From positions 23,590-87,589 of the forward strand of contig JBGCFL010000026.1 in assembly GCA_045106975.1 (NCBI GenBank): DNA of 64,000 nt. Reading direction: 5' to 3'. Within the stretch, counting starts at the first letter, position 1. Each line of letters starts with the position of its first letter. Made by a program: the position numbers and the translations under genes. The notes beneath the pieces were generated by a model. The model saw only the letters and a list, made by a program, of their open reading frames with translations. It was not told the origin of the DNA and did no database searches. The DNA comes from Ekhidna sp. (GTDB lineage Bacteria > Bacteroidota > Bacteroidia > Cytophagales > Cyclobacteriaceae). Shown here piece by piece: positions 1 through 16,817 of the stretch.

Positions 1-1
1 T

Positions 2-118
2 TACGTGACTTCAGGTCCGATGATGGAAGATAATAGAGGCATGTTAAATTCTTGGAATGATTTTGATCTTGACCCTATAAAGGTGAAAAGAAGTTGTTTT
101 TTGAAGCAATTTGATTGA
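2..118 (+). CDS. 3' end of a gene entering from the left edge (product unknown)
   Basis: Frame 2 is open from the window edge to TGA at 116-118 (...MEDNRGMLNSWNDFDLDPIKVKRSCFLKQFD*). It lies on the same strand, 59 nt upstream of the FabZ-like gene. No motif recognised. Confidence 0.3.
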   Translation, partial: YVTSGPMMEDNRGMLNSWNDFDLDPIKVKRSCFLKQFD

Positions 119-177
119 ACTAGTTCTTCAGCTTTATTAGTTTCACCAACTGTAATCAACAAATCAGTCGGTATTTA

Positions 178-636
178 ATGAGTAATTATACTTCTGTTCT
201 TGCGTCACTGCCCTATGCGAAACCATTCCACTTTGTAGATGAACTAACATCAATTGATGAAAGCGGTGCTCAAGGCAGCTACACTATTCGTGAAGATGAA
301 TATTTTTTTAAGGGACATTTTCCAGATCACCCTGTTGTTCCCGGAGTTATTCTCACAGAAATAATGGCTCAAATAGGATTGGTCTGTCTGGCGATTCATT
401 TACTTCAAGAGAAAGGGGAGACTAGCGAAGTATTACCTGCATTTACTAGTTCAAATGTTGATTTTCTAAAGAAGGTATCTCCAAAAGATAAATTAATTAT
501 CGAATCAAAAAAAGTGTATTTTCGTTTTGGTAAACTTAAATGTCAGATTTCGTGTAAGTTTCCTGATGGAACAATTGTAGCAAAGGGAGAGTTTTCAGGA
601 ATGATCGTAAAAAAGCAGGATATTGAAAAAGCATAG
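178..636 (+). CDS. 3-hydroxyacyl-ACP dehydratase, FabZ-like hotdog fold (cluster-associated paralog)
   Basis: 152 aa with the FabZ active-site block GHFPDHPVVPGVILTEIMAQ (catalytic His and Glu present). Overlaps the downstream KAS gene by 14 nt. Confidence 0.85.
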   Translation: MSNYTSVLASLPYAKPFHFVDELTSIDESGAQGSYTIREDEYFFKGHFPDHPVVPGVILTEIMAQIGLVCLAIHLLQEKGETSEVLPAFTSSNVDFLKKVSPKDKLIIESKKVYFRFGKLKCQISCKFPDGTIVAKGEFSGMIVKKQDIEKA

Positions 637-1903
637 AGTAGTCGTTACAGGAATGGGAGTCGTGTCTTCCAACGCAATAGGCGTAGACAATTTCGAGGAG
701 GCTTTGCGAAGTGGAAAATCCGGCATTAGACATTGGGATGAATTAGAAAAACTAAATCTGAGATGTCAGATTGGCGGAGTTCCAGATTTAGATTCCATTG
801 ATTTAAATGACTATTTACCAAAACTTCATGCTCAAAAACTAACCAATAAAGGAATTATCTATGCTCTTTTAGCTGGAACTGAAGCTTGGAAGGATGCAGG
901 ACTTACACCTAACACTGATGAAACTGACTTTAACTCAGGAATCATGTTTGGAGCTGGAGCTCTTAGTTTTGATAGCTATATAGGGAGAGAGTTTCCTGCT
1001 TACCCAATAGATAAAGGGGAAAGCAGAAGATTAGGTACTAGAACTATTTCTGAAGGGATGAATAGTGGTGCTGCTGCTTATATCAATTCTATTCTTGGAG
1101 TAGGAAATCGAGTGCAGTCTCATTCTTCTGCTTGTATTACCGGATCTGAATCAGTTTTGTCTGGGTATGAATACTTAGCCGCAGGTAGGGCAGATAGAGT
1201 TTTGTGTGGTAGTACAGAGGGAGATGGAAGGTATATATGGTCTGGTTTTGATGCAATGAGGGTTCTTTGTACGAACTCCAATGACGATCCCGGTAGAGGA
1301 TCAAGGCCAATGAGTAGTGATTCTTCAGGTTTTGTGCCTTCAGGGGGAGCAGGAGCAATGGTTCTAGAGACATTGGAGAGCGCAGAGAAGCGAGGAGCAA
1401 AAATCTATGCCGAAGTTTTAGGAGGACATATGAATTCTGGAGGTCAGCGTAATGGAGGGACAATGACTGCTGCTAATTCAGATGCAGTGGTAAACTGCAT
1501 TCAGACAGCAATGAAAACATCAGACATTGAGCCAGATGAAATAGATTTAATTAATGGTCATCTAACTTCTACCAAAGGTGATCCAACGGAAATTAGAAAT
1601 TGGGTTAAAGCTACAGGGAGGTCTGGGAAAGATTTCCCACTTATTAATACTCCCAAATCTATGATAGGTCATGCAGTAGCGGGTGCAGGTTCAATTGAGC
1701 TTGTTGCGAGTATACTGCAGCTGAGCAAAAACTTTGTTCACGCCAATTTGAACGTGGAAAATATTCATTCAGAAATTTTATCAGAAATCTTTGGGGGTTG
1801 CATTCCTACCAGTTGCCTTGGTCGGGAATTAAACACTATAGTAAAAGCCAATTTTGGTTTTGGTGATTTAAATTGCGCGATCGTTTTACGGAAATTTCTT
1901 TAA
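623..1903 (+). CDS. beta-ketoacyl-ACP synthase (KAS I/II type)
   Basis: 426 aa with N-terminus MKKHRVVVTGMGVVS. The Cys-His-His triad is present in the contexts SSACITGS, NGHLTST and KSMIGHAVAGAG. Confidence 0.9.
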   Translation: MKKHRVVVTGMGVVSSNAIGVDNFEEALRSGKSGIRHWDELEKLNLRCQIGGVPDLDSIDLNDYLPKLHAQKLTNKGIIYALLAGTEAWKDAGLTPNTDETDFNSGIMFGAGALSFDSYIGREFPAYPIDKGESRRLGTRTISEGMNSGAAAYINSILGVGNRVQSHSSACITGSESVLSGYEYLAAGRADRVLCGSTEGDGRYIWSGFDAMRVLCTNSNDDPGRGSRPMSSDSSGFVPSGGAGAMVLETLESAEKRGAKIYAEVLGGHMNSGGQRNGGTMTAANSDAVVNCIQTAMKTSDIEPDEIDLINGHLTSTKGDPTEIRNWVKATGRSGKDFPLINTPKSMIGHAVAGAGSIELVASILQLSKNFVHANLNVENIHSEILSEIFGGCIPTSCLGRELNTIVKANFGFGDLNCAIVLRKFL

Positions 1904-1905
1904 GA

Positions 1906-2160
1906 ATGAATAACACAAGTGTAAAAACAGACCTATTAGATATTATCAAACCATATCTTCCTGAAGATATCTCCATCGATGGAGTGACGGAAGACAAGCA
2001 TTTGATTGATGATCTACAAATCAATTCAGCTCATATAGTTGATATCGTATTGGATATAGAAGATAAATTTGACATCATGATAGATGATGATGCAATTGGC
2101 GAAATGAATACCGTCCAGGATTCGATTAATGTGGTCATGAAAATGACTACTGCTGCTTAA
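1906..2160 (+). CDS. acyl carrier protein
   Basis: 84 aa from ATG 1906; the track ORF start at 1873 lies inside the KAS 3' end. ACP-like helix II has a candidate phosphopantetheine Ser in DLQINSAHIVDIVLDIEDKFDI. Confidence 0.75.
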   Translation: MNNTSVKTDLLDIIKPYLPEDISIDGVTEDKHLIDDLQINSAHIVDIVLDIEDKFDIMIDDDAIGEMNTVQDSINVVMKMTTAA

Positions 2161-3065
2161 GATTCTTCTAGAAGCTTTTTATCAAATCTTTTTTGTCTGT
2201 AGTTCAATGGAATAATCGCAAGAGTCCAAACTGAACTACAGATGAGATAAAGATCAAAGCGTCCAAAAAAGGCAAAAATTATTATTGCATTTCTATGAGT
2301 GTTGCTACCACATAGCCATGCCCACCAAAAAAGCATTTTCTTATTAAGGTAAGAATATAAGCTATCAAAATTATTGTTTCCTTCTTTAGCTAAAGAGCGC
2401 ATTTTTAGTCTCTGTTCAGGTGTTCTTGTAGTGTAGATCAGTGTTTTCTTTATATAGTCTTTGTAGATACCGTCAAGAATTTTATTGTGAAATGAATCTC
2501 CGGTTGATTTTAATTCATCTGAGGAGATAGGCATATTACCAGCCTCTGATTTACCTATCAACAATAGGTACTCAGCTTTATAAAATTCGTAGAGGGCAGT
2601 TTTATAGCTATGCGTGTATCCAGAGATACCAGCCAGAACGATGATTAACCAACCATAAGTAGGGAAAAAATATACAGCACCTCCCACGTAGCAGGCAAGA
2701 AACACTACATTGTCTATTACGCCATCTATAGACCTACCAAGCTCTGTAGATTGACCAGTCATACGAGCCAGTTGACCGTCGGCACTATCTAGCACTCCAG
2801 CTAATGTTATAAGAACGCCTCCAATTAAGACTATTTCAGTTGAGTTTTGAAAGAAAAGCAATCCACCTCCAATAACACCAAGTAGTAAACTAAGTAGAGA
2901 TACATGTGTAGGAGTTAAAGAAAGCCACTTTCCCATTTTAGCAAAATACAACCCGTAAAACCGACTGAAATAAATATCATATCGCTCTTCGATATCAATC
3001 TGTTTTATAGTAGAAAGTACTTCTTCTAAATGTTTGTCAAACTTTCTTTTTAACATGCTACTCAA
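2157..3065 (-). CDS. CDP-alcohol phosphatidyltransferase family membrane protein
   Basis: Complete family motif D-x2-DG-x2-AR-x8-G-x3-D-x3-D in LDSADGQLARMTGQSTELGRSIDGVIDNV. Multiple hydrophobic segments. At 302 aa it is longer than a minimal PgsA-type enzyme. Confidence 0.85.
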   Translation of the reverse strand: MSSMLKRKFDKHLEEVLSTIKQIDIEERYDIYFSRFYGLYFAKMGKWLSLTPTHVSLLSLLLGVIGGGLLFFQNSTEIVLIGGVLITLAGVLDSADGQLARMTGQSTELGRSIDGVIDNVVFLACYVGGAVYFFPTYGWLIIVLAGISGYTHSYKTALYEFYKAEYLLLIGKSEAGNMPISSDELKSTGDSFHNKILDGIYKDYIKKTLIYTTRTPEQRLKMRSLAKEGNNNFDSLYSYLNKKMLFWWAWLCGSNTHRNAIIIFAFFGRFDLYLICSSVWTLAIIPLNYRQKRFDKKLLEES

Positions 3066-3143
3066 AGATTCGTCATATTATTTGAGCAAAATCTAAGGAT
3101 GGAAGTATTATAGATTTCGCAATGATTTGACTTCAAAGTTAAG

Positions 3144-4238
3144 TTATCGTGGACGTAAAAATGATTTAGACGCTACTTTTCCAAATCCATTAACTAATGA
3201 CATGATTATGGAAGCCTTTCTTACACTCCATTTTGAAATTGATTCATCCTCAGAATATTTCTGTACGTCTTTTAGTACCAAATTTTGAAACTGGGTAATG
3301 ATACCGGTATCTTTTGAACATAAGACTACCTCTTGTTCAAAATAGTAGCTGATCAAATCATAATTACTACTTCCGAATAATAACTCCTCACCATCTATGA
3401 GAACGGCTTTCATATGAGACATTCCAGGATATTCTTTTAGCTGAAAATAGCCTTTATCTTTCTCAGCTAAAATTAGATTCTTAAAAATTGACTTATTATT
3501 CACTTTTGGTGTGATAATAGTAATCTGAACACCTTTTGAGGCAGTCAATTTCAAAACATTTAAGAGAGGCTCAGAGATATAAGGGGATATAACTTCTACT
3601 GATTGCTTTGCTGATGAAATTCTTTTGAACAGGGAATCATAAATACCTTTACTTTTTATGCCGTTGAGAAGATATAATACTCCTTTATCTGTTTCTATTT
3701 CTTTTGACTGATTGTTGTCTTTTTGAGTTTCACGAAAATCATTTCCAAGTCTATTTCCAAGATCAAGACTATCTAGTGAAATCATCATATCGTGCCAAGA
3801 GAAATTATGATCACTAAAGTTAATCCCTCCTAAATAACAATATTGCTCATCGATAATGACCATTTTTTTGTGATTCCGAAGAGGATATTTTTGGCCTACC
3901 CAGCCAACTGGATTTGTGAATTTAACTTCAATCCCAGCTTCAATAGCTTCTTTTATAAGCGTTTTGGTATTTAGTACTTCCTTCCTGAATTCTTTATCAG
4001 ACCAATATTTCGTAGAAAAAATAAATTGGTCATTGATGACTACTTTGGAATAACTATCGATTAATATTTTTTTTTCTTTGGCAGGGCTGCTTTTCATGAC
4101 GGATATCAGCCATTTTCCTGCATCATCGCCCTCAAATGTCATTGCCTGAACGAAGAATGATTTTGTAGCCTTTTTTGCGACTAATTCTACGCTTTCTTTA
4201 AAAGCATTAGATCCTAATAAGATTTTAGACTTAGACAT
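3144..4238 (-). CDS. phospholipase D superfamily protein (two HKD motifs; cardiolipin/phosphatidylserine-synthase-like, apparently soluble)
   Basis: HKD1 is HKKMVIIDEQYCYLGGINFSDHN and HKD2 is HMKAVLIDGEELLFGSSNYD. No N-terminal transmembrane segment is evident. Confidence 0.85.
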   Translation of the reverse strand: MSKSKILLGSNAFKESVELVAKKATKSFFVQAMTFEGDDAGKWLISVMKSSPAKEKKILIDSYSKVVINDQFIFSTKYWSDKEFRKEVLNTKTLIKEAIEAGIEVKFTNPVGWVGQKYPLRNHKKMVIIDEQYCYLGGINFSDHNFSWHDMMISLDSLDLGNRLGNDFRETQKDNNQSKEIETDKGVLYLLNGIKSKGIYDSLFKRISSAKQSVEVISPYISEPLLNVLKLTASKGVQITIITPKVNNKSIFKNLILAEKDKGYFQLKEYPGMSHMKAVLIDGEELLFGSSNYDLISYYFEQEVVLCSKDTGIITQFQNLVLKDVQKYSEDESISKWSVRKASIIMSLVNGFGKVASKSFLRPR

Positions 4239-4265
4239 GCTCGAAAAGTTAATTAGATCAGAATT

Positions 4266-5093
4266 TTACTGGTTGATACCATATTTAATAGACTCAATTT
4301 CAAATGAAAAAGCTCCAACGGTCATATCTAATTCAAACTTCAGTGGAAGTTTGTTGGCATCATCGGATACAATTACCCTTCCTTTCTTACCTTTTTCGAA
4401 ATAATCCCCTTCAGGAAAGATCAATTCAAATTCTTGAGCACCAACATTGGAACCTAAGTATTTGTAAGTTGTCTTTTTACCAGGATTCATTTGAAATTCA
4501 TACAAGTCGTTCGTGAAAAATGTTCTTGCAGATACGGTACTAGATAGTTCTTCATCCTTCCTACTCCTTAACCAAAGATAAGTGCTAAGAACATCTCTTA
4601 CAGGGCTCTCCCCCAATTCAAATGTATGATACCTCCATTTATCAATATCTTCAATATATGCGTCAATTTTTACTGAGTCAGCGTATTTAAAGTGATCGTA
4701 CCTAATGTCAATTTTTTTCCCGTCAGATAAATTTCTGTGAGATTTATATGGTTGCAAGTTATCTGCTTGAACAAGTGATTCCATATGGATTCTCAGCTTA
4801 GAAAATATTTTAAACCAGCTCACAGTTTTGATATTGCATTGAATATTGTAATGCTCTTCACCATCATGTGTTTCTAAGTCTGGTTCAATCCATATTTCAG
4901 CCGAGCCAATTTTGAACCACCCATAGTGCATGGTATAGTATAGTTTTTCTCCTCTTTTAAAAGGATATGTTTTACTTTGGGCTTGAGAATTTTCTGTGTC
5001 AAAAAGAAGAATTCCAATTAACATAAATATGGCCAGATAACGGCTTATTACCTTGTATGAAAGTTGCTCTAGTATGTCCATATGATTTTTCAC
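4266..5093 (-). CDS. DUF3108-like secreted or membrane-anchored protein
   Basis: Has an N-terminal hydrophobic anchor or signal (AIFMLIGILLF...AQS) and a beta-rich body (YYTMHYGWFKIGSAEIWIEP...) resembling DUF3108. The start is uncertain: M1 at 5093 overlaps the GT4 start, and alternative Met codons lie at 5081 and 5024. Confidence 0.55.
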   Translation of the reverse strand: MKNHMDILEQLSYKVISRYLAIFMLIGILLFDTENSQAQSKTYPFKRGEKLYYTMHYGWFKIGSAEIWIEPDLETHDGEEHYNIQCNIKTVSWFKIFSKLRIHMESLVQADNLQPYKSHRNLSDGKKIDIRYDHFKYADSVKIDAYIEDIDKWRYHTFELGESPVRDVLSTYLWLRSRKDEELSSTVSARTFFTNDLYEFQMNPGKKTTYKYLGSNVGAQEFELIFPEGDYFEKGKKGRVIVSDDANKLPLKFELDMTVGAFSFEIESIKYGINQ

Positions 5094-6157
5094 GTCCTGG
5101 TGGTGTTAAGTCTCATATTGTAAGTCTTTCCCACCATCTTACAATGATAGGTCATCACGTTAAGATAATAGCTCCCAATATTAATGCCAATTTAGTTGAA
5201 GAAGAAAATGTATGCTTTTTTGCGCAGAGTAAATCAATCAATTTGGGCGGCACTAAAATTGATATCAACATTGCATTGGGCTCTGAAAAGAAAGCTTTAA
5301 GAAATTTTTTGAAAAGAGAGAGTTTCGATGTGATACATTACCATACTATTTGGAATCCTTTTCTTCCTTTTCAGGTAAGAAGATACTCAAGCGCAAAGCA
5401 AATTGCGACCTTCCATGACACACCGAAGAGTCAATTCGTTGGGGACTGGATTATGCCGACAGTAGCAAAAGGGGTTTTTCGATTTTTAGATCAAATCATC
5501 TCGGTATCTAAAAGTCAATCCAAATTTATTTCTAGATTTTCCAAACGAAAAATCCATATTATCCCAAATGGGATTGATTTGAAGTCTATTGAGTCGGTAG
5601 CTCCCAAATCATCTTCTCGAAAAGATGATAGTTTTCAATTGTTTTTTATGGGAAGACTTGAGCCACGAAAGGGAGTAATGCATGCTCTAAAAGCATTTCA
5701 CAAATTAAAGGACAGATATCCTAAATTGAAATTACTAATTGCAGGAGATGGAGATGGTAGAGTTGAAGTTGAGGAATACATTAATAATCATTCGTTAACT
5801 GATGTAGAGTTATTGGGCTTTGTTTCGGAAAGAGATAAGTATAAGATACTGAAAGAATCCGAAATTTATCTTGCTCCGGCCTTATATGGGGAGAGTTTTG
5901 GTATTGTACTACTAGAATCTATGGCTGTTGGGACACCAATTGCAGGCTATGCAAACTCAGGCTATATGAATGTTATTACTAATAAAATGAAGGATGGCTT
6001 TGCAGACCCAAGTGATTTGGAAGAACTTGTCAAAAAAATTGAAAACCTAATTCCTTCAAGAAAACGTGAAGAGCTATCTATTCATGGATTAGAAGAGGTC
6101 AAAAAATACGACTGGAGTAAAATTTCTAAAGATATATATGAAGTATATCAACTCTAA
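5057..6157 (+). CDS. GT4 (GT-B) glycosyltransferase, PimA-like
   Basis: N-terminus MKVALVCPYDFSRPGGVKSHIVSLSHHLTMIGHHVKIIAP resembles, from memory, mycobacterial phosphatidylinositol mannosyltransferase PimA. Also has EPRKG and the E-x7-E motif (ESFGIVLLE). Confidence 0.8.
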   Translation: MKVALVCPYDFSRPGGVKSHIVSLSHHLTMIGHHVKIIAPNINANLVEEENVCFFAQSKSINLGGTKIDINIALGSEKKALRNFLKRESFDVIHYHTIWNPFLPFQVRRYSSAKQIATFHDTPKSQFVGDWIMPTVAKGVFRFLDQIISVSKSQSKFISRFSKRKIHIIPNGIDLKSIESVAPKSSSRKDDSFQLFFMGRLEPRKGVMHALKAFHKLKDRYPKLKLLIAGDGDGRVEVEEYINNHSLTDVELLGFVSERDKYKILKESEIYLAPALYGESFGIVLLESMAVGTPIAGYANSGYMNVITNKMKDGFADPSDLEELVKKIENLIPSRKREELSIHGLEEVKKYDWSKISKDIYEVYQL

Positions 6158-7251
6158 GCGGTTGCGAATTTGAAATTAGGATTTCCAAACTTTTTTAATG
6201 TTCTGTAATGAGATGATATAGCATCTCCGAATGTGTCATGACAATTGTAAGGAACCCCATGTTCCTTTGCAATCCTTTCTACTATCGGACTAATTTTAGG
6301 ATAGTGTATACTGCAAACATTCGGGAATAGATGATGCTCAATCTGATAATTGAGTCCTCCAATAAACCATGATAATAACTTATTGCCTCTTGCGAAATTA
6401 TTCGTAGTATACATTTCATGAATCACCCAATGATCTTCAATCATATTATTTTCATTAGGTAATGGATGAGTTGTTTCTTCAACAACATGAGCAAGTTGAA
6501 ATATGATCCCTAGAATCAAACCAGCAGTTAAATGGGTTGACAAAAAGCCAATCAAAAACTGCCACCAAGTGATTTCAAGTAATATTAAAGGAATTACAAT
6601 GGCATACCCATAATAGGCCAACTTTGTTATAATTAGAGTTAACCATTCCCTGAGTTCATGTTTCTTGTTTTCAAATGGGCCAAGTGTAGGCTTAAAAAAG
6701 TACCAATAATCTTTAACAAATACCCAAAATATGGTTGCGAAACTATATGCTGGGAAAGCGAGTAAATGTTGAAAACGATGAATTGGTTTGTGCTCAGTAT
6801 GTGGTGAAAGCCTGATGAACTCGGCGACTTCTAAATCCTCATCATGACCATGGATATTTGTGTATGTATGATGTATTACATTATGAGTAATTTTCCAAAT
6901 ATATCCATTGGCTCCAACTAAATCGAAAAATAAACCAACAGCATAATTGATTTTGCTATTAGAAGAATATGACCCGTGAAGAGCGTCATGAGTTACTGAA
7001 AATCCAATTCCTGCCATCCCAATGCCCATCCCGATGGCTAGCATCCACATTGTGGATAATGAAAATCCACCTGAAATAATCAAAGCATAACAGCCGAAAT
7101 AGATAGCTAAAATAATGATGGTTTTAACAACCATTTGTGCATTAGCATGCTTCGAAATATTTTCTTTTTTGAAAAAGGCTTTTACCTCTGCTTTTACAGC
7201 TTCGTTAAATTCACGATCTATTTTATTGTTGAAAGTTACTTTTTCCGGCAT
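6154..7251 (-). CDS. membrane fatty-acid desaturase, front-end type (third box QxxHH), no cytochrome b5 domain
   Basis: His boxes HDALHG, HNVIHH and QIEHHLFP; four or more hydrophobic spans; no HPGG heme-binding motif. Confidence 0.85.
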   Translation of the reverse strand: MPEKVTFNNKIDREFNEAVKAEVKAFFKKENISKHANAQMVVKTIIILAIYFGCYALIISGGFSLSTMWMLAIGMGIGMAGIGFSVTHDALHGSYSSNSKINYAVGLFFDLVGANGYIWKITHNVIHHTYTNIHGHDEDLEVAEFIRLSPHTEHKPIHRFQHLLAFPAYSFATIFWVFVKDYWYFFKPTLGPFENKKHELREWLTLIITKLAYYGYAIVIPLILLEITWWQFLIGFLSTHLTAGLILGIIFQLAHVVEETTHPLPNENNMIEDHWVIHEMYTTNNFARGNKLLSWFIGGLNYQIEHHLFPNVCSIHYPKISPIVERIAKEHGVPYNCHDTFGDAISSHYRTLKKFGNPNFKFATA

Positions 7252-7269
7252 ACCAGCTAATTAAGATTG

Positions 7270-7277
7270 GCAAAGAT
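7270..7277 (-). promoter_or_regulatory. candidate Bacteroidota sigma-A -7 box (TAtcTTTG) for the desaturase gene
   Basis: The reverse complement of caaagata matches the TAnnTTTG consensus. It lies 19 nt upstream of the desaturase ATG. Confidence 0.4.
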
Positions 7278-7352
7278 AATTCTTTATCCTTTCATACTGA
7301 GAGACTTAAGAGTAACAATATTCACTTTGTTTATGTTACTTCTCAATGAGTC

Positions 7353-8444
7353 TTACTTATTATTGAAATAATCTTTGACTTTATTAATAACCTTAACCAT
7401 ATCTTCCTCATAAAGTTCTCCAATTACTGCAACACGGAAAGTTTTACTCTCCGGAATAACCCCTGGGTATATGGTAATTCCATGCTCAAATAGATAATCA
7501 TGGAAATGATTAAAGTCAAGTTCAGGTTTGTCAAGATTAAGCGCCAGAAGAATTTTTGATTCTTGCTCCAGTGGTAAAAAAGGAGTAAAACCTATTTCTA
7601 AGAAGCCATCATACAGTTTTTGCCAGTTATTTTGATAACGTTTCCATCTGTTTTCTAGTCCTTCTTCCTGATGTTCCTTAATAGCTTCTAAAAAAGCATA
7701 GCTAGTCTGTACGGGAGGGGTAAATCGTAATTGATTTTTTTGTTGGAGGTTGTTCCACTGCTTATATACATCAAAGTAGAAGCCTCTTCCATTTGTCTTT
7801 AACTCTTCAGTTCTATCCTTGTGAAAGATCACAAACGACAGTCCAGCCATCCCATGTATGCACTTATTTGAGCTAGAAAAGAGATAATCTATTTGAAGCT
7901 CTGCTAGATCAATAGGATAAGCTCCATACGAACTCATAGCATCTACAATAAATTTCACCCCAGTTTCTTTGCATACTCTTGCCACTTCTTCGATAGGATC
8001 CATCATGCCTGTGGAAGTTTCATGATGTACCATGACTAAGTGAGTGTATTTTCCATTTGAAAGCTCCTCCTTGATTTTGGCAGGTTCTGGGTAATCCCCG
8101 AATTCATAAAGTGATGAATTTTTCAATCCATAACCATCACAAATGGATTTCATTCTAATGCCATAAGCACCATTGGTAATAATCAAAGCATGATCCTCTG
8201 TTCCAAGAGCAGAAACCAAGCATGCTTCCATAGCTCCTGTGCCGCTTGCTCCGAATAGGGAAATTCTATGAGTCTCTAATCCATTACCGACTTTTAGAAC
8301 ACCATCACAGATGTCATGCATCACCTTTCCAAACTCACTTTCACGAGGACAAATATCTGAAACAATTTGAGCGTCTTTTACTCTTTGAGATGTGGTAGCA
8401 GGACCTGGATTTAATAAGATTTTTCTTTCTGGATGGTTATTCAT
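7353..8444 (-). CDS. phnW: 2-aminoethylphosphonate--pyruvate transaminase
   Basis: 363 aa class-V aminotransferase with N-terminus LLNPGPATTS and the PLP-lysine context SSSNKCIHG. Sits directly downstream of the decarboxylase and PEP mutase genes. Confidence 0.85.
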   Translation of the reverse strand: MNNHPERKILLNPGPATTSQRVKDAQIVSDICPRESEFGKVMHDICDGVLKVGNGLETHRISLFGASGTGAMEACLVSALGTEDHALIITNGAYGIRMKSICDGYGLKNSSLYEFGDYPEPAKIKEELSNGKYTHLVMVHHETSTGMMDPIEEVARVCKETGVKFIVDAMSSYGAYPIDLAELQIDYLFSSSNKCIHGMAGLSFVIFHKDRTEELKTNGRGFYFDVYKQWNNLQQKNQLRFTPPVQTSYAFLEAIKEHQEEGLENRWKRYQNNWQKLYDGFLEIGFTPFLPLEQESKILLALNLDKPELDFNHFHDYLFEHGITIYPGVIPESKTFRVAVIGELYEEDMVKVINKVKDYFNNK

Positions 8445-8467
8445 AAATCTGAAAATAGAATGTTAAA

Positions 8468-9586
8468 TCAATTTGAAAGATTCTTCATGAATGCTTCTTT
8501 GTTTTGAACTGGAGTGGTAGTAGGTCGTCCCAAATCAGCCCGTGAGCTTTCTGTTGTTCTTATTTCCAACAAAACTGGGCCTTCTGTTTTTTGAAATTGA
8601 TCCCAAACGGCAGGAAGTTGATCCATTTCAGTCACCAACCAGGTTTTTTTGTAGCCCGATGCATCTGCTATTTTTTGAAAGTCAATGGCGAACCCAACAG
8701 TAGCTTGACCTCCAACAGATTCATGGCAGCCATTGTTGATCAATATGTGCTTGTAATTTTTTGATGGTTGATTACCAATAATCGCTCCTGCTCCCATGTG
8801 CATAATGGTAGCACCATCGCCATCCAGGCAATATACAGGACGTTTTTTCTTACTAAGCGAAATGCCCAACGCTATCTGAGAGGCATGCCCCATTCCTCCA
8901 ACAGTAAGGAAGTCTTTGCCATGTCCCATCTGATTTTTAGCTCTAATCTCAAAAACTTCTCTTGAAGATTTTCCTGTAGTAGAAACCACAACAGCACTTT
9001 CTTCCATCCCTTTCAGCATCCACTCAATGACTTCTTCACGGTTAATTGAATAGGGATTCTCAACCTTCGTTTTAAGCTTATACTTTTCAAAGACTCCTTT
9101 TCTTACCAATAGGGCAAATGGAGTATTGTTTGAATTCATGGCCTCAAATGATTTTACCAATTGCTGTTTAGCCTCATCTTCATTATCTGAAAGAATGGCA
9201 TAATCAATCCCCATAGTTTGCAAAAGCTCTTCAGAAATTCTTCCTTGCTTCACATGCTGTGGCTCATCTTTCACCCCTGGTTCACCTCTCCATCCTATCA
9301 TAAGTAGCATTGGAATGGAGTATACATCAGAGTCAGCTAACGATGCTAAAGGATTTACGCAATTTCCAAAGCCAGAATTTTGCATATAAACTAAAGGAAT
9401 CTTGCCTGTAGCTAGATGATGTCCAACTCCAAGAGCGATTGCGCCACCTTCGTTTGCAGCAATAATATCTGTTCCTTCATCAGTAATAACTGAACAAAAA
9501 TCTTTTAGTAGAGAGTCTGGAACTCCAGCAGAAAACTCGACTCCCTGATTACGAATGGATTTTAGAAACTTCTGAGGATCTAGCAT
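8468..9586 (-). CDS. ppd: phosphonopyruvate decarboxylase (ThDP-dependent)
   Basis: 372 aa with the ThDP motif GDGATIMHMGAGAIIGN...INNGCHESVGGQ. Its size and its position between the PEP mutase and PhnW genes fit this call. Confidence 0.85.
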   Translation of the reverse strand: MLDPQKFLKSIRNQGVEFSAGVPDSLLKDFCSVITDEGTDIIAANEGGAIALGVGHHLATGKIPLVYMQNSGFGNCVNPLASLADSDVYSIPMLLMIGWRGEPGVKDEPQHVKQGRISEELLQTMGIDYAILSDNEDEAKQQLVKSFEAMNSNNTPFALLVRKGVFEKYKLKTKVENPYSINREEVIEWMLKGMEESAVVVSTTGKSSREVFEIRAKNQMGHGKDFLTVGGMGHASQIALGISLSKKKRPVYCLDGDGATIMHMGAGAIIGNQPSKNYKHILINNGCHESVGGQATVGFAIDFQKIADASGYKKTWLVTEMDQLPAVWDQFQKTEGPVLLEIRTTESSRADLGRPTTTPVQNKEAFMKNLSN

Positions 9587-9630
9587 TTAGAATTAATTTT
9601 TGATAGTAAGAACATTTTGAGTATTCAGCA

Positions 9631-10923
9631 CTAGTTTGGAAGAATAGTTAATATTTCTTTGATTGACATACAGAATTCGTCAGCTTCTTTTGACCTTTTG
9701 TGCGTTAAAATTGATTCTGCTGTTTTCTGCATAGCAGGGAATGCAGCTCTCAATAAGTGATTGGCATAAATGACAATACTGAAGCCAGCCTCATGTAGTT
9801 CTTCTTCTGTGAATTGGTTGTAAGAGGATGGTACAGACACAACAGGTACCTTGTATTCAAATTCCTGATATTTTTTCATGAATTCCATGATCTCACTTCC
9901 ATCTTTATGTCGACTGTGAATCATGATTGCGTCAGCACCAGCTTCTATATATGCTTTAGCTCTAGTAAGAGCATCTTCCATTCCATGTTCTGCTATTAAG
10001 CTCTCTAAACGAGCTATAACCATGAAATCTTCGGTGACTTGAGCCTTTTTACCTGTGTTGATTTTCTCACAAAAACCTTCAATAGTATCAAGTTCTTGCT
10101 TTACCTCAGTTCCGAAAAGTGAATTTCTCTTTAAGCCTACTTTATCTTCTATGATCACAGCGGAAACACCTAATCGCTCAAGGTTTCTAACAAGCATAGC
10201 AAAGTGTTCAGAAACACCGCCTGTATCGCCATCTAGAATGATTGGCTTTGTCGTCACATCCAATATGTCATTGATGGTATTGAATCGAGATGTTCTATCT
10301 ACATACTCTGTGTCTGGTTTTCCTTTTGCTGTAGAATCTGTCAATGAGCTTACCCACATTGCATCAAATTCTCTTACTTCACTTTCAGCGGCAATTGTTG
10401 TTTGCTCCACAATCAATGCTGAAATACCATTGTGAGTTTCCATTACTCTAACAATGTCTTTAGACTCTAAAAGTCTTCTCAGCATTCTTCTTCTTATGTC
10501 AGGCGTAGTACCTACTTCCTTCATCGCAGCTCTAAGGCCAGTTGATGAAATGCCTGAAGTGTATTCTGGTTCTACCAATTCTCCACCCCATTCAGCTAAT
10601 AGCTTTACAACTTTTTCACGGATATGCTTTTGTGGACCTGTTTTCCAATCACTTCCATGTACAACATAATCAGGCTTAAGTTTTCTTAAGTTTTCCTCAT
10701 AGTCGAGTACTTGCTGAGGAATAACTTCTTTTACGCCTTTTAAATTTTCAAGAATTTTTTTTCGCTCTTCGTAAGATAAAAAAGGAGTTCGGCTATACTT
10801 ACTTACTGCTTTATCAGACAAAAGTCCGACGGTTACTTCACCCAATTCTCTTGCAGTCTCTATTATATTGATGTGTCCGTGATGAATGAGATCTGTTCCC
10901 ATTCCTACATATACTGTCTTCAT
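9631..10923 (-). CDS. pepM: bifunctional cytidylyltransferase-domain / phosphoenolpyruvate mutase fusion
   Basis: The N-terminal ~130 aa carry HxGH (DLIHHGH) and GISSTGLR, which are TagD/ECT-type cytidylyltransferase motifs. The C-terminal ~290 aa belong to the isocitrate-lyase superfamily and carry the PEP-mutase signature EDKxxxxxNS ([12 protein letters not shown]). Confidence 0.85.
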
Positions 10924-11087
10924 TTTTTTCTTATTTATTCTGGTTACTCACACATTATATTTTCAAGTTATTGAAGGGGATGTTCTTGAATAAATGAATG
11001 AACTCTTTTCTTAACGAAAATTTAAATATTCTATCTTCGCACAAAGCTAAGGCGAAAGCGACAAAACGCCTCTTTAATTTAACTAAG

Positions 11088-11807
11088 ATGACGCAAACGA
11101 TTGAAACTGCTGTAATACTAGCAGCAGGCAGAGGCACAAGATTACAGCCATTCACTTTTGATATTCCCAAAGGATTTATGCCTGTAGGGGATGAGCGATT
11201 AATAGAGCGCTCTGTTAGACTGCTTAAAGAGAATGGCATTAAGAATATCATCATAGGAACGGGACACTTGCATGAGCATTATGTCAGGTTCGCTGAGGAG
11301 AATGGTCTTCAGACATTTCTTAGTCCTGACTTTGCGACTACAGGTAGTTTTCATACTCTTATTTTTGGTTCTGAACTTATAGAAGGTGATTTTTTGCTAT
11401 TAGAATCTGATTTGCTTTATCATTCAGATGCAATAAAAAGCCTTCTAAATTCATCGAATGACGATGTTATCCTGACGAGTGGATTTACTCAGTCAAATGA
11501 TGAAGTGTATGTTGAGATAGAAGGAGGAAAGCTGAAAAGTCTGTCTAAGAAAAAAGAAGAGCTAGCATCAATTGATGCGGAGTTAGTTGGGATTTGGAAA
11601 ATTTCGATGAGCCTACTTAATAAACTTAAAGAACATCACGCATCAGCGGCTGACGGGAAGAAAAAGGATTATGAAATTGCAATAGCAGCACTATCGGAAG
11701 TTTATCCTGTTGACGTTCTAAAGTTAGATGACTTGGCTTGGTGTGAGATAGATAATCAAGAACATCTAGAAAGAGCAAAAAAGAAAATACTCCCTAGGCT
11801 CGATTAA
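11088..11807 (+). CDS. LicC/PntC-like nucleotidyltransferase (candidate phosphonate or phospho-alcohol cytidylyltransferase)
   Basis: 239 aa from ATG 11088 with the N-terminal NTP-transferase loop AVILAAGRGTRLQPFT. Divergent from the pepM operon. Confidence 0.75.
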   Translation: MTQTIETAVILAAGRGTRLQPFTFDIPKGFMPVGDERLIERSVRLLKENGIKNIIIGTGHLHEHYVRFAEENGLQTFLSPDFATTGSFHTLIFGSELIEGDFLLLESDLLYHSDAIKSLLNSSNDDVILTSGFTQSNDEVYVEIEGGKLKSLSKKKEELASIDAELVGIWKISMSLLNKLKEHHASAADGKKKDYEIAIAALSEVYPVDVLKLDDLAWCEIDNQEHLERAKKKILPRLD

Positions 11808-12400
11808 GTCTTAGGCGCCTGCCAAAGCCCAGTTTGGGGATCTCTAGAACCGCCCGTGCCTAGGTAACCATACATTAATTCCAAGTAGCCCTTTGTGTTA
11901 TTTGGTACTGTTATTTCCAAGCCTAAAAATTCATCCTTTTTCAGCGGGTATACTAATTCTTTAGGAATGAGCTGTCTTTCATTTGGATAATTGGCGTCAA
12001 CAAATGTTCTAATATTTTCCTCTTTATCTTCATAAAAGAAGATATCGAAATCATACCCTTTGTATGAAAAATAAACTTTAGGACCTTCATGATTTGCTGA
12101 AGTATCATAGAATTTTAAGCCTTTAGGCATTTTATTTTTCAACTCTTTTATTTTCTCATAAGAGCTTTCCATCATGGCAACATCAATATCTACATCGTGA
12201 GGAATAATACCGCCTGACCTGTAATACCCCAATAATGTCCCAAAGTCTAACCAATAAGGCTCTCCAGTTTCCTTCAATAGGTCAATAGAAAGTCTATACA
12301 TCTCTTCTAAGACATGAATCTTTCTTTTTCTATATTGACCGGGCAATGCGAATAAAATTACATTTGCAATCCGTTGAATGTATTGGCTTAGGCGAATCAT
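11804..12400 (-). CDS. LicD-family phosphotransferase
   Basis: 198 aa with the LicD/fukutin-type block LDFGTLLGYYRSGGIIPHDVDIDVAM. Confidence 0.75.
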   Translation of the reverse strand: MIRLSQYIQRIANVILFALPGQYRKRKIHVLEEMYRLSIDLLKETGEPYWLDFGTLLGYYRSGGIIPHDVDIDVAMMESSYEKIKELKNKMPKGLKFYDTSANHEGPKVYFSYKGYDFDIFFYEDKEENIRTFVDANYPNERQLIPKELVYPLKKDEFLGLEITVPNNTKGYLELMYGYLGTGGSRDPQTGLWQAPKT

Positions 12401-12437
12401 AGAACAAAAAAAACGAAATCATTCAACTAATTGATCA

Positions 12438-13355
12438 TTGGAACAAAAAGAGATTCATAAACCTATCGATTTAGTCTACACTTGGGTAGATGGGGATGAT
12501 CCTGAATACAGAAAATTAGTAAATCAGTATTCGGAGAAACCAATTGATCTAAATCCAGAAAGAACTCGGGATATTTTTCAGCTAATGAAATTTAGTCTCA
12601 GGTCTGTTGAGAAATATGCTCCTTGGATTAATCATATTTATATCCTGACTTGTCGTCCTCAGTATCCTGCATGGTTAGATATTGATCATCCAAAGATATC
12701 GATCATTCATCATGATGAAGTTTTTGATTCCTCAGACATCCCAACTTTCAATTATAACGTGATTGAAAGCTATCTGCATAAAATTCCTAACCTGTCTGAA
12801 GATTTTATATATCTCAATGATGATTTTCTGTTTGGAAATAATGTATACCCATCTGATTTCTACTCAAAAGACAATAAGGTGCTGATCCATGGATCATTGC
12901 TTGGGGAGAATCTAGGATGGAGAATTTATAACAAAAAGAATGACATCCTTGGTCTTGGTCTTATAGAACATTCACCTCTTCTGATTAGGAAAAGGTGGTG
13001 GCAACAAATGCAAGACAGGAGAAAAGATTTAATTGATGATATCAAGTCTCATAAGTTTAGAGAAGGGACAGATGTGATGACCTACAAGCTTTATCGATGG
13101 TATTGTTTGAAATTTGAAAAGGAAAATGCAAAAGCGATAAAACTACCAGACTTATTAAAAATTCATTCCTTTCATAAAATCACTAATGATTTCAAAAAGC
13201 AAGAAAAAGCATTTAAAAAATTGGAGGAAAAGCAACCCAAATTCTATTGCCTAAATGATGATCAGGGAGATCGACCAAATCCAAAGGTGGTTGAGCTTGT
13301 TCAGGATTTTCTTCAAACACAGTACCCTAGCAAATCTTCATTTGAAAAGTATTAA
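12438..13355 (+). CDS. Stealth-family hexose-1-phosphate transferase-like protein
   Basis: Stealth CR1 (IDLVYTWVDGDDPEY), a CR2-like block (FSLRSVEKYAPWINHIYILT...PAWL) and YLNDDF. It has a TTG start, with no ATG upstream of CR1. Confidence 0.75.
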   Translation: MEQKEIHKPIDLVYTWVDGDDPEYRKLVNQYSEKPIDLNPERTRDIFQLMKFSLRSVEKYAPWINHIYILTCRPQYPAWLDIDHPKISIIHHDEVFDSSDIPTFNYNVIESYLHKIPNLSEDFIYLNDDFLFGNNVYPSDFYSKDNKVLIHGSLLGENLGWRIYNKKNDILGLGLIEHSPLLIRKRWWQQMQDRRKDLIDDIKSHKFREGTDVMTYKLYRWYCLKFEKENAKAIKLPDLLKIHSFHKITNDFKKQEKAFKKLEEKQPKFYCLNDDQGDRPNPKVVELVQDFLQTQYPSKSSFEKY

Positions 13356-13532
13356 TGCTATTTTTTAAATATTACTCGTTACTCTTAGGGGTTTTGTCGA
13401 AAACTTATTCCTAATAGATGTCATTACCCAGAAGGGTAAAGCTCCAAATTCAGATTGAAATTTTCAGGAAAAACAATTATTGTAAATTGGTGTGTTTGTG
13501 TAATAATACCGTTTTATATAAAAAAATTAAAT

Positions 13533-14117
13533 ATGTTATTCAACCTAATCATTGTTTGTCTTCATAAATTTTTCGGAAAGACTACTGACTTCTTTCTCAA
13601 CTATAAATATTTATTTCTCAGGAAGTATTATCAAAAAAGATGTCTTGATATAGGATCTGGAACTGGTCGTTTCGCAAAATATTTGCTGGACATGGGGCAT
13701 AAAGTCAACATGCTTGATGTAATAGATAAATCAGAATTTTCTGAGCTGGGTTTGACGCTTTTTGACGGGAAAAATATTCCATTTGATGATCAATCATTTG
13801 AAACATCTACAGTTATGTTTGTGCTGCATCACACTGATGATCAGGATGAGTTAATTGAAGAGTGTAAAAGAGTAACCTCTAAGTACATTATAATAGGTGA
13901 GGATGTAATTCAACATAATTTTGATAAGGTGCTAGGAAATATTCACTTAGGCACTTCTCCTTGGTCAAAAAGTAAAAATGGATTTAGGACTAGGGAGGGC
14001 TGGTTAGGCTTTTTTGAGCGTCATAAACTTCAGCTAGTTAAATCTGTATCTATCCCAAGATCTATTTACCCTATTTATCCAGTTTTTAGAGAAATTTTCG
14101 TCTTGAAAGTAGCCTAA
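13533..14117 (+). CDS. class I SAM-dependent methyltransferase
   Basis: 194 aa from ATG 13533 with SAM motif I CLDIGSGTGRFAKYL and the acidic post-I residue in NMLDV. The track ORF start at 13455 is a TTG. Confidence 0.75.
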   Translation: MLFNLIIVCLHKFFGKTTDFFLNYKYLFLRKYYQKRCLDIGSGTGRFAKYLLDMGHKVNMLDVIDKSEFSELGLTLFDGKNIPFDDQSFETSTVMFVLHHTDDQDELIEECKRVTSKYIIIGEDVIQHNFDKVLGNIHLGTSPWSKSKNGFRTREGWLGFFERHKLQLVKSVSIPRSIYPIYPVFREIFVLKVA

Positions 14118-14190
14118 ATGACTGTTTGGAGAGTGCAAGGTATTGTTTAGGCTGAAAGCTTGTTTTGATACAACTTTGCAAAAAAAAGCA

Positions 14191-14604
14191 ATGCCTCGAA
14201 TTTTATCTATTGATTATGGAGCCAAACGTACAGGATTAGCTGTTACAGACCCCATTGGCATTATCGCTACTGCTCTTGATGTTGTTGCTTCTCACCAATT
14301 GGAACAATACTTGAAAAATTATTTTGAAAAAGAAGAGGTAAGTGAAGTGGTGATTGGTATGCCAAAAAACACTGATGGAACACCAACTAATGCTACTCCA
14401 CTTGTTCAAGCATTTATCAATAGATTCAAAAAGGTTTTCCCTTCGAAGAGATTAGTTTTGCATGACGAGCGCTTCACGTCCAAAATGGCAATGGATGCAA
14501 TGATAGTGGGGGGGATGAAAAAGAAAGATAGAAGAGTAAAAGGAAACGTGGATAAAGTGAGCGCTACCATAATTTTACAATCTTATTTAGAGACTAAGTC
14601 ATGA
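14191..14604 (+). CDS. ruvX: Holliday-junction resolvase-like nuclease YqgF/RuvX
   Basis: 137 aa from ATG 14191 with N-terminus MPRILSIDYGAKRTGLAV. Overlaps def by 4 nt (ATGA). Confidence 0.85.
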   Translation: MPRILSIDYGAKRTGLAVTDPIGIIATALDVVASHQLEQYLKNYFEKEEVSEVVIGMPKNTDGTPTNATPLVQAFINRFKKVFPSKRLVLHDERFTSKMAMDAMIVGGMKKKDRRVKGNVDKVSATIILQSYLETKS

Positions 14605-15149
14605 TTTTTCCAATTGTACTGTATGGTGATCCTATCCTTAAGAAAAAGGCAAAGGAGGTAGAGCAAGGAGATGATTCTGTAAAAGAGTTTGTTGAACATA
14701 TGTTCGAAACCATGTATGCTGCACAGGGAGTAGGACTAGCAGCACCGCAGGCAGGGTTCTCATTGAGAGTGTTTGTGATAGATACTCGTCCTATGAGTGA
14801 GGATGAAGAAGAGGGTTTGAAGCAAGCGTTTATTAATCCCGAGATCATTGATGAAGATGGTGAGGCATGGGCTTTTGAAGAGGGATGTTTAAGCATTCCT
14901 GGTATCAGAGAAGATGTGAGTAGAAAGTCTAATGTAACGATTAGGTACTATGATGAAAATTGGGAAGAGCATGAGGAAGAGTATGATGATCTTATAGCTC
15001 GTGTTATTCAGCATGAATATGATCACATAGAAGGAAAATTATTCACTGATTATCTGACTCCATTTAAGAAGCGTTTACTGAAGGGTAAACTAGCCAATAT
15101 AAGCAAAGGCAAGGTAGATGCAGATTATCGAGTAAAACCTCCAAGATAA
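14601..15149 (+). CDS. def: peptide deformylase
   Basis: All three deformylase motifs are present: GVGLAAPQ, EGCLSIPG and HEYDH. Confidence 0.95.
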   Translation: MIFPIVLYGDPILKKKAKEVEQGDDSVKEFVEHMFETMYAAQGVGLAAPQAGFSLRVFVIDTRPMSEDEEEGLKQAFINPEIIDEDGEAWAFEEGCLSIPGIREDVSRKSNVTIRYYDENWEEHEEEYDDLIARVIQHEYDHIEGKLFTDYLTPFKKRLLKGKLANISKGKVDADYRVKPPR

Positions 15150-16179: not shown

Positions 16180-16180
16180 A

Positions 16181-16198: not shown

Positions 16199-16216
16199 TT
16201 TTGATTAAAAAAATAG

Positions 16217-16810: not shown

Positions 16811-16817
16811 TAGATCA

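Follow-up and report, generated by a model that had tools for sequence, protein, structure and literature searches.

A 2-aminoethylphosphonate cassette nested in a predicted inositol-sphingolipid locus of Ekhidna and related Cytophagales

What do bacteria attach their 2-aminoethylphosphonate (AEP) to? Tailoring of the cell surface is the presumed role of most bacterial pepM clusters, with the steps beyond CMP-AEP and the acceptors essentially unknown (PMC6697681, PMC8942020). The question is raised anew by a 64,000-nucleotide stretch of Ekhidna sp. (GenBank assembly GCA_045106975.1, contig JBGCFL010000026.1, positions 23,590 to 87,589), the window analysed here, of which bases 1-14117 hold genes for AEP synthesis among lipid genes and glycan-type phosphotransferases. 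The original prediction, made from the letters alone, took this region for a composite island that routes AEP both into a membrane phosphonolipid and onto a surface glycan. Profile searches recovered all 16 of its open reading frames at the same coordinates and in the same families (Table 1), and a comparison of gene neighbourhoods showed the island to be real, the genes flanking pepM being conserved with it in 11 genomes. Where the AEP goes looks different to us. Taken as a whole chain, the proposal that the locus builds a glycosylated inositol-phospho-sphingolipid, with an AEP tailoring cassette embedded in the lipid genes, is one whose chances we consider evenly balanced, while the gene-function assignments alone, as predicted from sequence, can be held with considerable confidence. 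A membrane glycolipid is the probable carrier of AEP, which would sit on it as a decoration and probably not form the head group itself.

The AEP core carries the expected signatures. The PEP mutase, PepM, scored 417.3 bits with TIGR02320 (cut-off 319.55) and has the EDKxxxxxNS motif from residue 259. It had been described as a PEP mutase, and a second domain was overlooked: the protein is a fusion of an N-terminal PF01467 CTP_transf_like domain (residues 11-132, with HHGH at residue 14) to the PEP_mutase domain (residues 148-406), a type that makes up 23.6% of Ppm enzymes (PMC6697681). Phosphonopyruvate decarboxylase (Ppd) reached 468 bits with TIGR03297 (cut-off 312.5) and has the GDG..NN motif. 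The PhnW-type AEP:pyruvate aminotransferase (AEPT) was borderline with TIGR03301 (360.0 bits, cut-off 360.8) and above the cut-off with NF010006 (317.6 versus 296). Ppd and the AEP transaminase adjoin Ppm, and synthesis of AEP by these three predicted enzymes is well supported. The next gene had been called a LicC-type nucleotidyltransferase. Its NTP_transferase family holds, but it is much closer to PntC, with a best PDB match of 163.8 bits to the Treponema denticola PntC-AEPT protein Tde1415 (6pd1) against 56.6 bits to pneumococcal LicC (1jyk). Its orthologues measure 236-246 aa, and on these comparisons the enzyme is a PntC-type AEP cytidylyltransferase.

The remaining two genes of the cassette would act downstream of CMP-AEP. 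Under the phosphonyl tailoring (Pnt) scheme, the transfer starts from CMP-AEP and is presumably carried out by a LicD-like enzyme (Rice et al., 2019, PMC6697681). Here LicD gave weak matches to the Mf1 glycolipid cholinephosphotransferase and to FKRP. We scanned homologues of the CDP-alcohol phosphotransferase of the island in one genome per species (80 loci, scored by tblastn), taking 10-kb flanks as the neighbourhood; within these flanks LicD occurred in pepM-containing loci only, and we propose that it moves AEP from CMP-AEP onto a sugar hydroxyl. The Stealth protein, which travels with the AEP cassette across loci, matched CR1, CR2 and CR4 above their cut-offs (44.3, 125.4 and 38.3 bits), and CR3 was found only weakly, in the orthologue of locus L087. 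The cassette resembles known Pnt AEP clusters, including aepXYZ of the Bacteroides fragilis polysaccharide B locus (PMC6697681), in its PepM-PF01467 fusion with the EDKxxxxxNS motif, its Ppd and AEPT, its separate PF12804 PntC closest to Tde1415, and its neighbouring LicD-family transferase. It differs from them in carrying a Stealth hexose-1-phosphate transferase, and in lying in a sphingolipid/inositol-lipid locus instead of a polysaccharide locus. Four relatives have in their cassettes a PhyH/PhnY*-like dioxygenase (NF052437, 150 bits; L001:823-1617, L009, L011 and L089:15039-15824) that is absent from the window; 1-hydroxy-AEP is therefore predicted in those strains.

How far does the lipid side of the island reach? 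The original prediction placed the left boundary outside the window, and the window indeed opens within the end of a GNAT-like gene. We inferred the left flank from locus L005, which has the same gene order and a CDP-alcohol phosphotransferase 82% identical to that of the window. Upstream of FabZ and on the same strand, L005 has a serine palmitoyltransferase (Spt), a reductase and the 369-aa GNAT-like protein, which run into the genes for FabZ, beta-ketoacyl-ACP synthase (KAS) and acyl carrier protein (ACP); farther left stand a 244-aa NTP transferase and a myo-inositol-1-phosphate synthase (MIPS; Pfam, 352 bits), and then the housekeeping genes for Sua5, WbqC and ClpB. The NTP transferase belongs with inositol-1-phosphate cytidylyltransferase (IPCT): its best family is the IPCT half of IPCT/DIPPS (NF041135, 137 bits) and its best PDB match the Archaeoglobus fulgidus IPCT (2xme, 81 bits). 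Spt scored 638.9 bits with the CFB-type model NF047600, whose cut-off is 640. On this gene content the island is about 19.7 kb long, reaching from the housekeeping genes on the ClpB side (left) to ruvX and def (right), and window bases 1-14117 would be its right two-thirds. The leftward extension is also present in Ekhidna sp. To15 and in Marinoscillum and Cyclobacteriaceae genomes. MIPS was detected by tblastn in L001, L005, L008, L009, L010 and L013, and as a Pfam Inos-1-P_synth gene in L003 and L006.

These genes point to ceramide synthesis. The GNAT-like protein (Acetyltransf_1, 33 bits, a generic match) and the reductase (matches only to the generic Epimerase and 3Beta_HSD families of SDR enzymes) are candidates, from their context and broad family membership, for the bacterial ceramide synthase bCerS and for CerR; a homologue search with the former returned only unnamed or GNAT-named proteins. 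FabZ, KAS and ACP, joined in many relatives by a ketoreductase, appear to be co-transcribed with Spt and the GNAT gene, as we read the operon, and probably supply a dedicated acyl-ACP. FabZ models scored about 75 bits on the dehydratase, below their cut-offs, and its orthologues gave ApeP-like and ApeI-like matches. KAS reached 250 bits with TIGR03150, below the cut-off of 494, which argues against a housekeeping FabF. The ACP gene had no Pfam match, and the serine in its DLxINSA motif is invariant across 13 orthologues; in L004 the gene is called at 84 aa. The AcpR-dependent Spt of Proteobacteria resembles this ACP link, whereas Bacteroidetes Spts have been described as acyl-CoA users (PMC11324152). 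The arrangement recalls the Caulobacter Spt-bCerS-CerR pathway with its dedicated ACP (PMC11087976, PMC11324152), in that Spt, an epimerase-family reductase, a GNAT protein and an ACP share one operon. It departs from that pathway in its CFB-type Spt and in having no acyl-ACP synthetase, in place of which there are KAS, dehydratase and, in some loci, ketoreductase genes. Bacteroidota ceramide genes have been reported as not co-localised (PMC11334938); in this Cytophagales locus they are. The operon also varies: L089 has a Cupin_8/JmjC-like gene (2646-3809) between KAS and ACP, L010 a second GNAT (bCerS-like) copy, and L006 and L011 two tandem KAS genes.

Are the AEP cassette and the lipid genes one system, or merely neighbours? 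In the window the cassette (PepM, Ppd, AEPT, PntC, LicD and Stealth) is nested between the glycosyltransferase of family 4 (GT4) and the methyltransferase, and 11 genomes (Ekhidna, Marinoscillum, Cyclobacteriaceae) have it beside the lipid genes, the identity of the CDP-alcohol phosphotransferase falling to 44% among them. The methyltransferase changes place: it comes after Stealth in both the window and L087; in L089 it overlaps the GT4 stop codon, and the AEP genes come next; and in L012, which lacks pepM, it stands ahead of GT4. It follows from this variable position that the cassette of the window lies inside the lipid module. Accessory genes (an extra desaturase, DUF6492, PhyH, an epimerase, an OlsC/LpxO-like hydroxylase) are present in some loci only. 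The DUF3108 gene, itself inside the lipid module, was found in 9 of the 11 pepM-containing genomes and in none of the five without pepM (one-sided Fisher p 0.005, from counts that are not phylogenetically independent). In two of the latter, L012 (12020-20329) and L016 (383-4964), the slot beside GT4 is filled by GT25, GT47 (exostosin-like) and an MsbA-like ABC exporter, and in L012 also by a 602-aa sulfatase-family protein and an OlsC/LpxO-like Asp_Arg_Hydrox hydroxylase. The sulfatase family includes phosphoethanolamine transferases. With such other decoration genes in loci that lack pepM, the slot beside GT4 looks like a variable cassette for head-group decoration, and gene linkage as compared here supports a coupled lipid/phosphonate island. 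L012 (PBTY01000022.1) is titled 'Rickettsiales bacterium', yet its cluster is of the Cytophagales type, with 48-69% protein identity to Ekhidna, and it is probably mis-binned or mislabelled.

The same neighbourhoods might be read as two independent envelope loci lying side by side, one for inositol (sphingo)lipids and the other sending AEP to an unrelated polysaccharide, lipopolysaccharide (LPS) or glycoprotein encoded elsewhere. We regard this as unlikely, although several observations favour it. The classical role of the LicD and Stealth families is to modify glycans, and marine pepM clusters are frequently tied to the assembly of glycans or glycoproteins (PMC8931226; PMC6697681). The cassette comes and goes as a unit, being present in Marinoscillum L003 and absent from L016, and the carriers are collinear enough for the linkage to be inherited. 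Against separate loci speak the nested position of the cassette, a linkage kept despite the repositioning of the methyltransferase and several insertions, the co-variation of the lipid-module DUF3108 with pepM, and the use of the same slot in pepM-less loci for other decoration genes and a lipid-type exporter. Nor were polysaccharide-assembly genes at hand: no Wzx flippase, Wzy polymerase or initiating-transferase gene was found in or beside the island, which is followed by ruvX and def and by genes for a hydrolase and a TetR regulator. The forecast that LicD and Stealth place AEP on a surface glycan is plausible; with no assembly genes nearby, the likelier glycan is that of the lipid's own head group.

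The nature of that lipid turns on the CDP-alcohol phosphotransferase. Its catalytic motif, the DG-x2-AR..G..D..D pattern noted in the original prediction, is complete (D93-x2-DG-x2-AR-x8-G-x3-D-x3-D), as are the two HKD motifs of its neighbour of the phospholipase D (PLD) superfamily and the front-end box of the desaturase. A single-sequence search of the PDB returned AF2299 and IPCT-DIPPS as the only solved relatives. With a 19-sequence profile, AF2299 (40.5 bits) and IPCT-DIPPS (34.7) ranked first, followed by PIP synthases and, lower, by CEPT1 (24.2), PssA (about 24), CHPT1 (18.9) and PgsA (16 bits). An AlphaFold (AF2) model built on the same alignment (pLDDT 87.5, pTM 0.82) gave a similar order in Foldseek: AF2299 (E 7.6e-4), DIPPS (6e-3), PgsA1/PIPS, PSS, and then CHPT1 (0.04) and CEPT1 (0.09), with TM-scores of only about 0.4, which are explained by a conserved C-terminal extension of about 140 residues. 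Choline- and ethanolamine-phosphotransferases (CPT/EPT) are not, by margins that are modest, the closest characterised relatives. By sequence profile and predicted fold, the enzyme is AF2299/DIPPS-like and not CPT/EPT-like.

Its gene neighbours tell the same story. Among relatives with at least 43% identity and enough flank (10 with pepM and five without), an IPCT-like gene and the PLD gene adjoin the transferase in 15 of 15, and GT4 is present in all but one. Orthologues 43-50% identical occur in syntenic loci of five genomes (Reichenbachiella faecimaris L002/L015, L012, L014, L016 and L017) that have no PepM, Ppd, AEPT, PntC or LicD, absence being judged within 10 kb only. Since the IPCT-like gene is always present, and since the transferase is the sole CDP-alcohol user in the loci that lack pepM, CDP-inositol is the most economical donor. 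On these comparisons the donor is most likely CDP-inositol, with ceramide or diacylglycerol as the acceptor. More distant homologues (63, with 29-40% identity, mostly from Bacteroidales) lie within 10 kb of MIPS in 31 cases and within 10 kb of pepM in none. One of them, 32% identical to the window enzyme, sits in a cassette of NTP-transferase, CDP-alcohol phosphotransferase and HAD hydrolase in Tannerella forsythia, a proven maker of inositol-phosphodihydroceramides (PMC4587543).

That cassette belongs to the 'alternative' inositol-lipid cluster of Bacteroides vulgatus, Prevotella and Tannerella, which comprises MIPS, an NTP transferase, a CDP-alcohol phosphatidyltransferase and a HAD hydrolase (Heaver et al., 2022, PMC9246714), and for which the route through CDP-inositol is a prediction, as yet unconfirmed (PMC9246714). 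The Cytophagales loci share with it the homologous transferase (29-40% identity), the adjacent IPCT-type NTP transferase, MIPS nearby, and the predicted use of CDP-inositol as a Kennedy-type head-group donor. They differ from it in that none has the HAD gene, the two-HKD PLD being found in conserved position, and in that they add the PimA-like GT4, the ceramide genes (Spt, reductase, GNAT, ACP, KAS, dehydratase) and the AEP cassette. In T. forsythia and in metagenome-assembled genomes of Bdellovibrionales/Oligoflexia, a conserved protein of 225-285 aa with no Pfam match is encoded between the NTP transferase and the CDP-alcohol gene (L086:9153-10010, L018:9308-9985, L023:9152-9979). The copies are 30-37% identical, and their C-terminal 'YGGD..DG..ID.NDWPSF' region is ATP-grasp-like. 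As MIPS is not nearby, it is tempting to speculate that this protein could be an inositol kinase for scavenged inositol.

The route foreseen in the original prediction, in which AEP reaches a glycan through LicD and Stealth, and AEP-ceramide or AEP-diacylglycerol is formed from CMP-AEP by the CDP-alcohol transferase, is harder to maintain, and we consider it improbable. It is chemically feasible, CMP-AEP being an analogue of CDP-ethanolamine. The locus also holds Spt and ceramide genes, sphingophosphonolipids exist in Bacteriovorax (PMC8942020), and Burkholderiales pepM clusters with a CDP-alcohol transferase are predicted to make phosphonolipids (PMC8942020). Weighed against this are the syntenic loci without pepM, the constant pairing of the transferase with an IPCT-like gene that is distinct from PntC, the ranking of AF2299 and DIPPS above CEPT1 and CHPT1 by sequence and fold, and the fact that the AEP cassette already has a transferase of its own in LicD. 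Full-length homologues with 32-37% identity in Bdellovibrionales at first seemed to favour an AEP-ceramide transferase. They were ruled out as support, because they stand in a T. forsythia-type cassette (NTP-transferase, unnamed gene, CDP-alcohol phosphotransferase, HAD) with no pepM within 10 kb; their NTP transferase had no informative PDB match. The original prediction had also allowed that the enzyme might prove to be an ordinary one, dependent on CDP-diacylglycerol and independent of pepM. The independence held within 10 kb, but the donor is most likely CDP-inositol. That the IPCT-like enzyme and the transferase instead make a soluble osmolyte of the di-myo-inositol-phosphate type, as in thermophiles, is very improbable: the closest solved relatives (AF2299 and IPCT-DIPPS) and the marine habitat would suit it, but the genes conserved with the pair encode a PimA-like GT4, a lipid enzyme of PLD type, a sphingolipid desaturase and the Spt/ceramide proteins, its Bacteroidales homologues come from bacteria whose inositol lipids are proven, and the C-terminal helical extension of the transferase is conserved outside the DIPPS match.

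The pairing of pepM with a CDP-alcohol transferase has a predicted precedent in the 'Burkholderiales_CDP-OH' clusters of Yu et al. (2013), as summarised by Li and Horsman (2022, PMC8942020). The seven-gene core of Group 1 comprises a Ppm-PntC fusion, Ppd, AEPT, an alpha-ketoglutarate dioxygenase, a second PntC and two phospholipid genes, and its product, predicted to be a phosphonolipid, was never characterised. Group 1 resembles our locus in that one neighbourhood combines a Ppm-cytidylyltransferase fusion, Ppd and AEPT with a further PntC and a CDP-alcohol transferase, and its dioxygenase has counterparts (PhyH) in the relatives L001, L009, L011 and L089, with none in the window. The Ekhidna-type transferase differs in having IPCT and MIPS partners of its own and in occurring also in loci with no pepM within 10 kb.

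If the lipid is an inositol lipid, what would glycosylate it? The GT4 had been called PimA-like, and this was borne out: the matches to Mycobacterium smegmatis PimA (2gej and 4n9w) extend over residues 1-365, its full length, and at 131 bits stand far above the next GT4 (43 bits). Since the enzyme is specifically PimA-like, an inositol-lipid acceptor is implied once more, and we propose that it mannosylates the inositol lipid. The two-HKD PLD (motifs at residues 123 and 275) had no informative relatives. It holds the position of the HAD hydrolase in the Bacteroidales cassette, and a guess would be that it swaps the head group or lipid moiety, turning an inositol glycerolipid into a ceramide lipid. 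The desaturase has the His boxes HDALH, HNVIHH and QIEHH, the last a front-end-type Q box, and no cytochrome b5 domain. This 365-aa front-end type is an accessory gene of three loci only (the window lineage, L005 and L013), and most relatives have a Lipid_DES-type (sphingolipid delta-4) desaturase between PLD and the CDP-alcohol gene, which the window lineage lacks. DUF3108 is an outer-membrane family of YmcC fold (PMC4364669); for the protein of the window a PDB sequence search gave no match and a single-sequence AlphaFold model was unusable (pLDDT 38).

The methyltransferase was considered as an AEP N-methylase. This was rejected as the primary reading, because an orthologue adjoins GT4 in L012, a locus without pepM; by its gene neighbours, the overlap with GT4 in L089 included, the methyltransferase is a member of the lipid module. 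Its probable start, at about 13533, is backed by a 100% identical protein of 194 aa (P0241). The family is small (42 matches), and a copy in Gracilimonas (Balneolales; L088:10001-10630) lies between penicillin-binding protein and ATP synthase genes, a purely housekeeping context, so that the family is not exclusive to the lipid locus.

Put together, these assignments suggest the following pathway. MIPS would convert glucose-6-phosphate to inositol phosphate, and the IPCT-like enzyme would convert this to CDP-inositol. For ceramide, Spt would act with the GNAT acyltransferase and the reductase, assisted by ACP, KAS and the dehydratase. The CDP-alcohol phosphotransferase would then transfer phospho-inositol to ceramide, or alternatively to diacylglycerol, followed by a PLD-mediated exchange of the lipid moiety, and the PimA-like GT4 would add a hexose. 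In parallel, PEP would pass through phosphonopyruvate and phosphonoacetaldehyde to AEP, from which PntC would make CMP-AEP; LicD would place AEP from this donor on a sugar hydroxyl of the inositol-lipid head group, and Stealth would add a sugar-1-phosphate. The methyltransferase may methylate the product, and DUF3108 (or the ABC exporter in relatives) may export or traffic it. That AEP ends up on the inositol glycolipid is a tentative step, with somewhat less than an even chance. Stated in full, the proposal is that Ekhidna-type marine Cytophagales make a mannosyl-inositol-phospho-ceramide decorated with AEP, or in some strains with 1-hydroxy-AEP, a 'lipophosphonoglycan' formed from one locus of about 20 kb by a CDP-inositol Kennedy-type route and a CMP-AEP/LicD step; in this form it is possible, though it falls clearly short of probable.

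Several points weigh against the proposed pathway. The usual substrates of LicD and Stealth enzymes are teichoic acids, LPS or capsules, and the acceptors given to both here are inferences only. The best NCBIfam match of the CDP-alcohol transferase, at 58 bits and far below the cut-off, is archaetidylinositol-phosphate synthase, which uses a CDP-lipid donor; the direction of transfer is therefore not settled by sequence. The bCerS and CerR identities depend on context and broad family matches, and MIPS, IPCT and Spt lie outside the window, their presence in this genome being deduced from the 82% identical relative. The pepM-containing loci are largely collinear, so inheritance, and not selection, may explain part of their conservation. 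A literature search on Ekhidna lipid chemistry found nothing.

The predicted product has an analogue in the AEP-bearing glycoinositol-phosphoceramides of protozoa, namely the lipophosphonoglycan of Acanthamoeba and the LPPG and GIPLs of Trypanosoma cruzi, which likewise combine ceramide, phospho-inositol, hexose(s) and AEP. Their structures are reportedly due to Korn and Previato. The likeness is an analogy of predicted product and not one of family membership, for the enzymes are unrelated; the eukaryotic inositol-phosphoceramide synthase is of the AUR1 type. A literature lead to these lipids is PMC3964302. In our literature search a bacterial lipid combining AEP, inositol and ceramide, or a locus of this kind, was not found described. 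Each part belongs to known pathways; new here is that the AEP, inositol-lipid and ceramide parts are joined in one conserved locus, with PLD in place of HAD, a PimA-like GT4 attached, a ceramide operon co-localised in a Bacteroidota lineage, and a nested AEP cassette that includes Stealth.

The locus thereby names a concrete candidate for the AEP acceptor, a PimA-type glycosylated inositol lipid, and the loci without pepM supply natural controls. In the Cytophagales version, which is found in cultured strains such as Ekhidna lutea and Ekhidna sp. To15, the CDP-inositol route is physically linked to Spt and the ceramide genes. Should the pathway prove to be as proposed, bacterial phosphonyl tailoring would gain its first defined acceptor, and the 'alternative' inositol-lipid pathway of bacteria could for the first time be approached through function. 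The product would be the bacterial equivalent of the AEP-glycoinositol-phosphoceramides of protozoa, and a lipid-bound source of marine phosphonate would have been identified.

Table 1. Predicted genes of the island in the window (positions counted from the first base of the window)
Predicted product	Position	Strand	Basis
GNAT-like acyltransferase, 3' end	2..118	+	Frame-2 translation YVTSGPMMEDNRGMLNSWNDFDLDPIKVKRSCFLKQFD, ending in a stop, aligns with the C-terminus of the L005 369-aa GNAT-like protein
FabZ/ApeI/ApeP-like 3-hydroxyacyl-ACP dehydratase	178..636	+	Pfam FabA, 63 bits
FabF-like beta-ketoacyl-ACP synthase (KAS)	623..1903	+	Pfam ketoacyl-synt N- and C-terminal domains
Dedicated acyl carrier protein (ACP)	1873..2160, probable start 1906	+	NCBIfam ACP, about 45 bits, below cut-off
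CDP-alcohol phosphotransferase, AF2299/DIPPS-like	2157..3065, probable start ~3056	-	Pfam PF01066, 43.7 bits
Two-HKD PLD-superfamily phosphodiester transferase, soluble	3144..4238	-	Pfam PLDc_2 and PLDc
DUF3108 protein, exported	4266..5093	-	Pfam DUF3108, 80.7 bits; N-terminal hydrophobic segment
PimA-like GT4 glycosyltransferase	5057..6157	+	PDB PimA entries 2gej, 4n9w, 131 bits
Membrane desaturase, front-end-type QxxHH box	6154..7251	-	Pfam FA_desaturase, 106.6 bits
AEP:pyruvate aminotransferase (AEPT/PhnW/AepZ)	7353..8444	-	NF010006, TIGR03301
Phosphonopyruvate decarboxylase (Ppd)	8468..9586	-	TIGR03297; GDG..NN
Cytidylyltransferase-like (PF01467)/PEP mutase fusion (PepM)	9631..10923	-	Pfam CTP_transf_like and PEP_mutase; TIGR02320
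PntC-type AEP cytidylyltransferase (Pfam NTP_transferase)	10998..11807, probable start ~11088	+	6pd1, 164 bits
Short LicD-family phosphotransferase	11804..12400	-	Pfam LicD, 73 bits
Stealth-family hexose-1-phosphate transferase	12438..13355	+	Pfam Stealth CR1, CR2, CR4
Class I S-adenosylmethionine (SAM) methyltransferase	13455..14117, probable start ~13533	+	Pfam Methyltransf_11; right end of island

For four of these genes the mechanically called reading frames exceed the lengths that homologues support, which are 239 aa for PntC, 194 aa for the methyltransferase, 84 aa for ACP and 299 aa for the CDP-alcohol phosphotransferase. No compositional anomaly was seen, the GC content being 0.32-0.41 in the island as in the flanks. 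A scan for sigma-70 promoters and terminators, a method poorly suited to Bacteroidota, showed no enrichment over shuffled sequences, and PHROGs profiles gave nothing useful for the window. tRNA and Rfam scans of the window found two tRNAs only, neither within the island.

To the right of the island, ruvX and def directly follow the methyltransferase. Beyond def (window 15274-17249) the minus strand encodes an alpha/beta hydrolase, a TetR regulator and tRNA-Phe (17176-17249), with no link to the island. In the Cyclobacteriaceae carrier L087, the region after the methyltransferase (10694-17746) encodes instead a 149-aa open reading frame, a 537-aa ABC exporter, DUF1647, two unannotated genes, a Wzi-like protein and a 4'-phosphopantetheinyl transferase (ACPS), and the locus may thus reach farther there than in the window.

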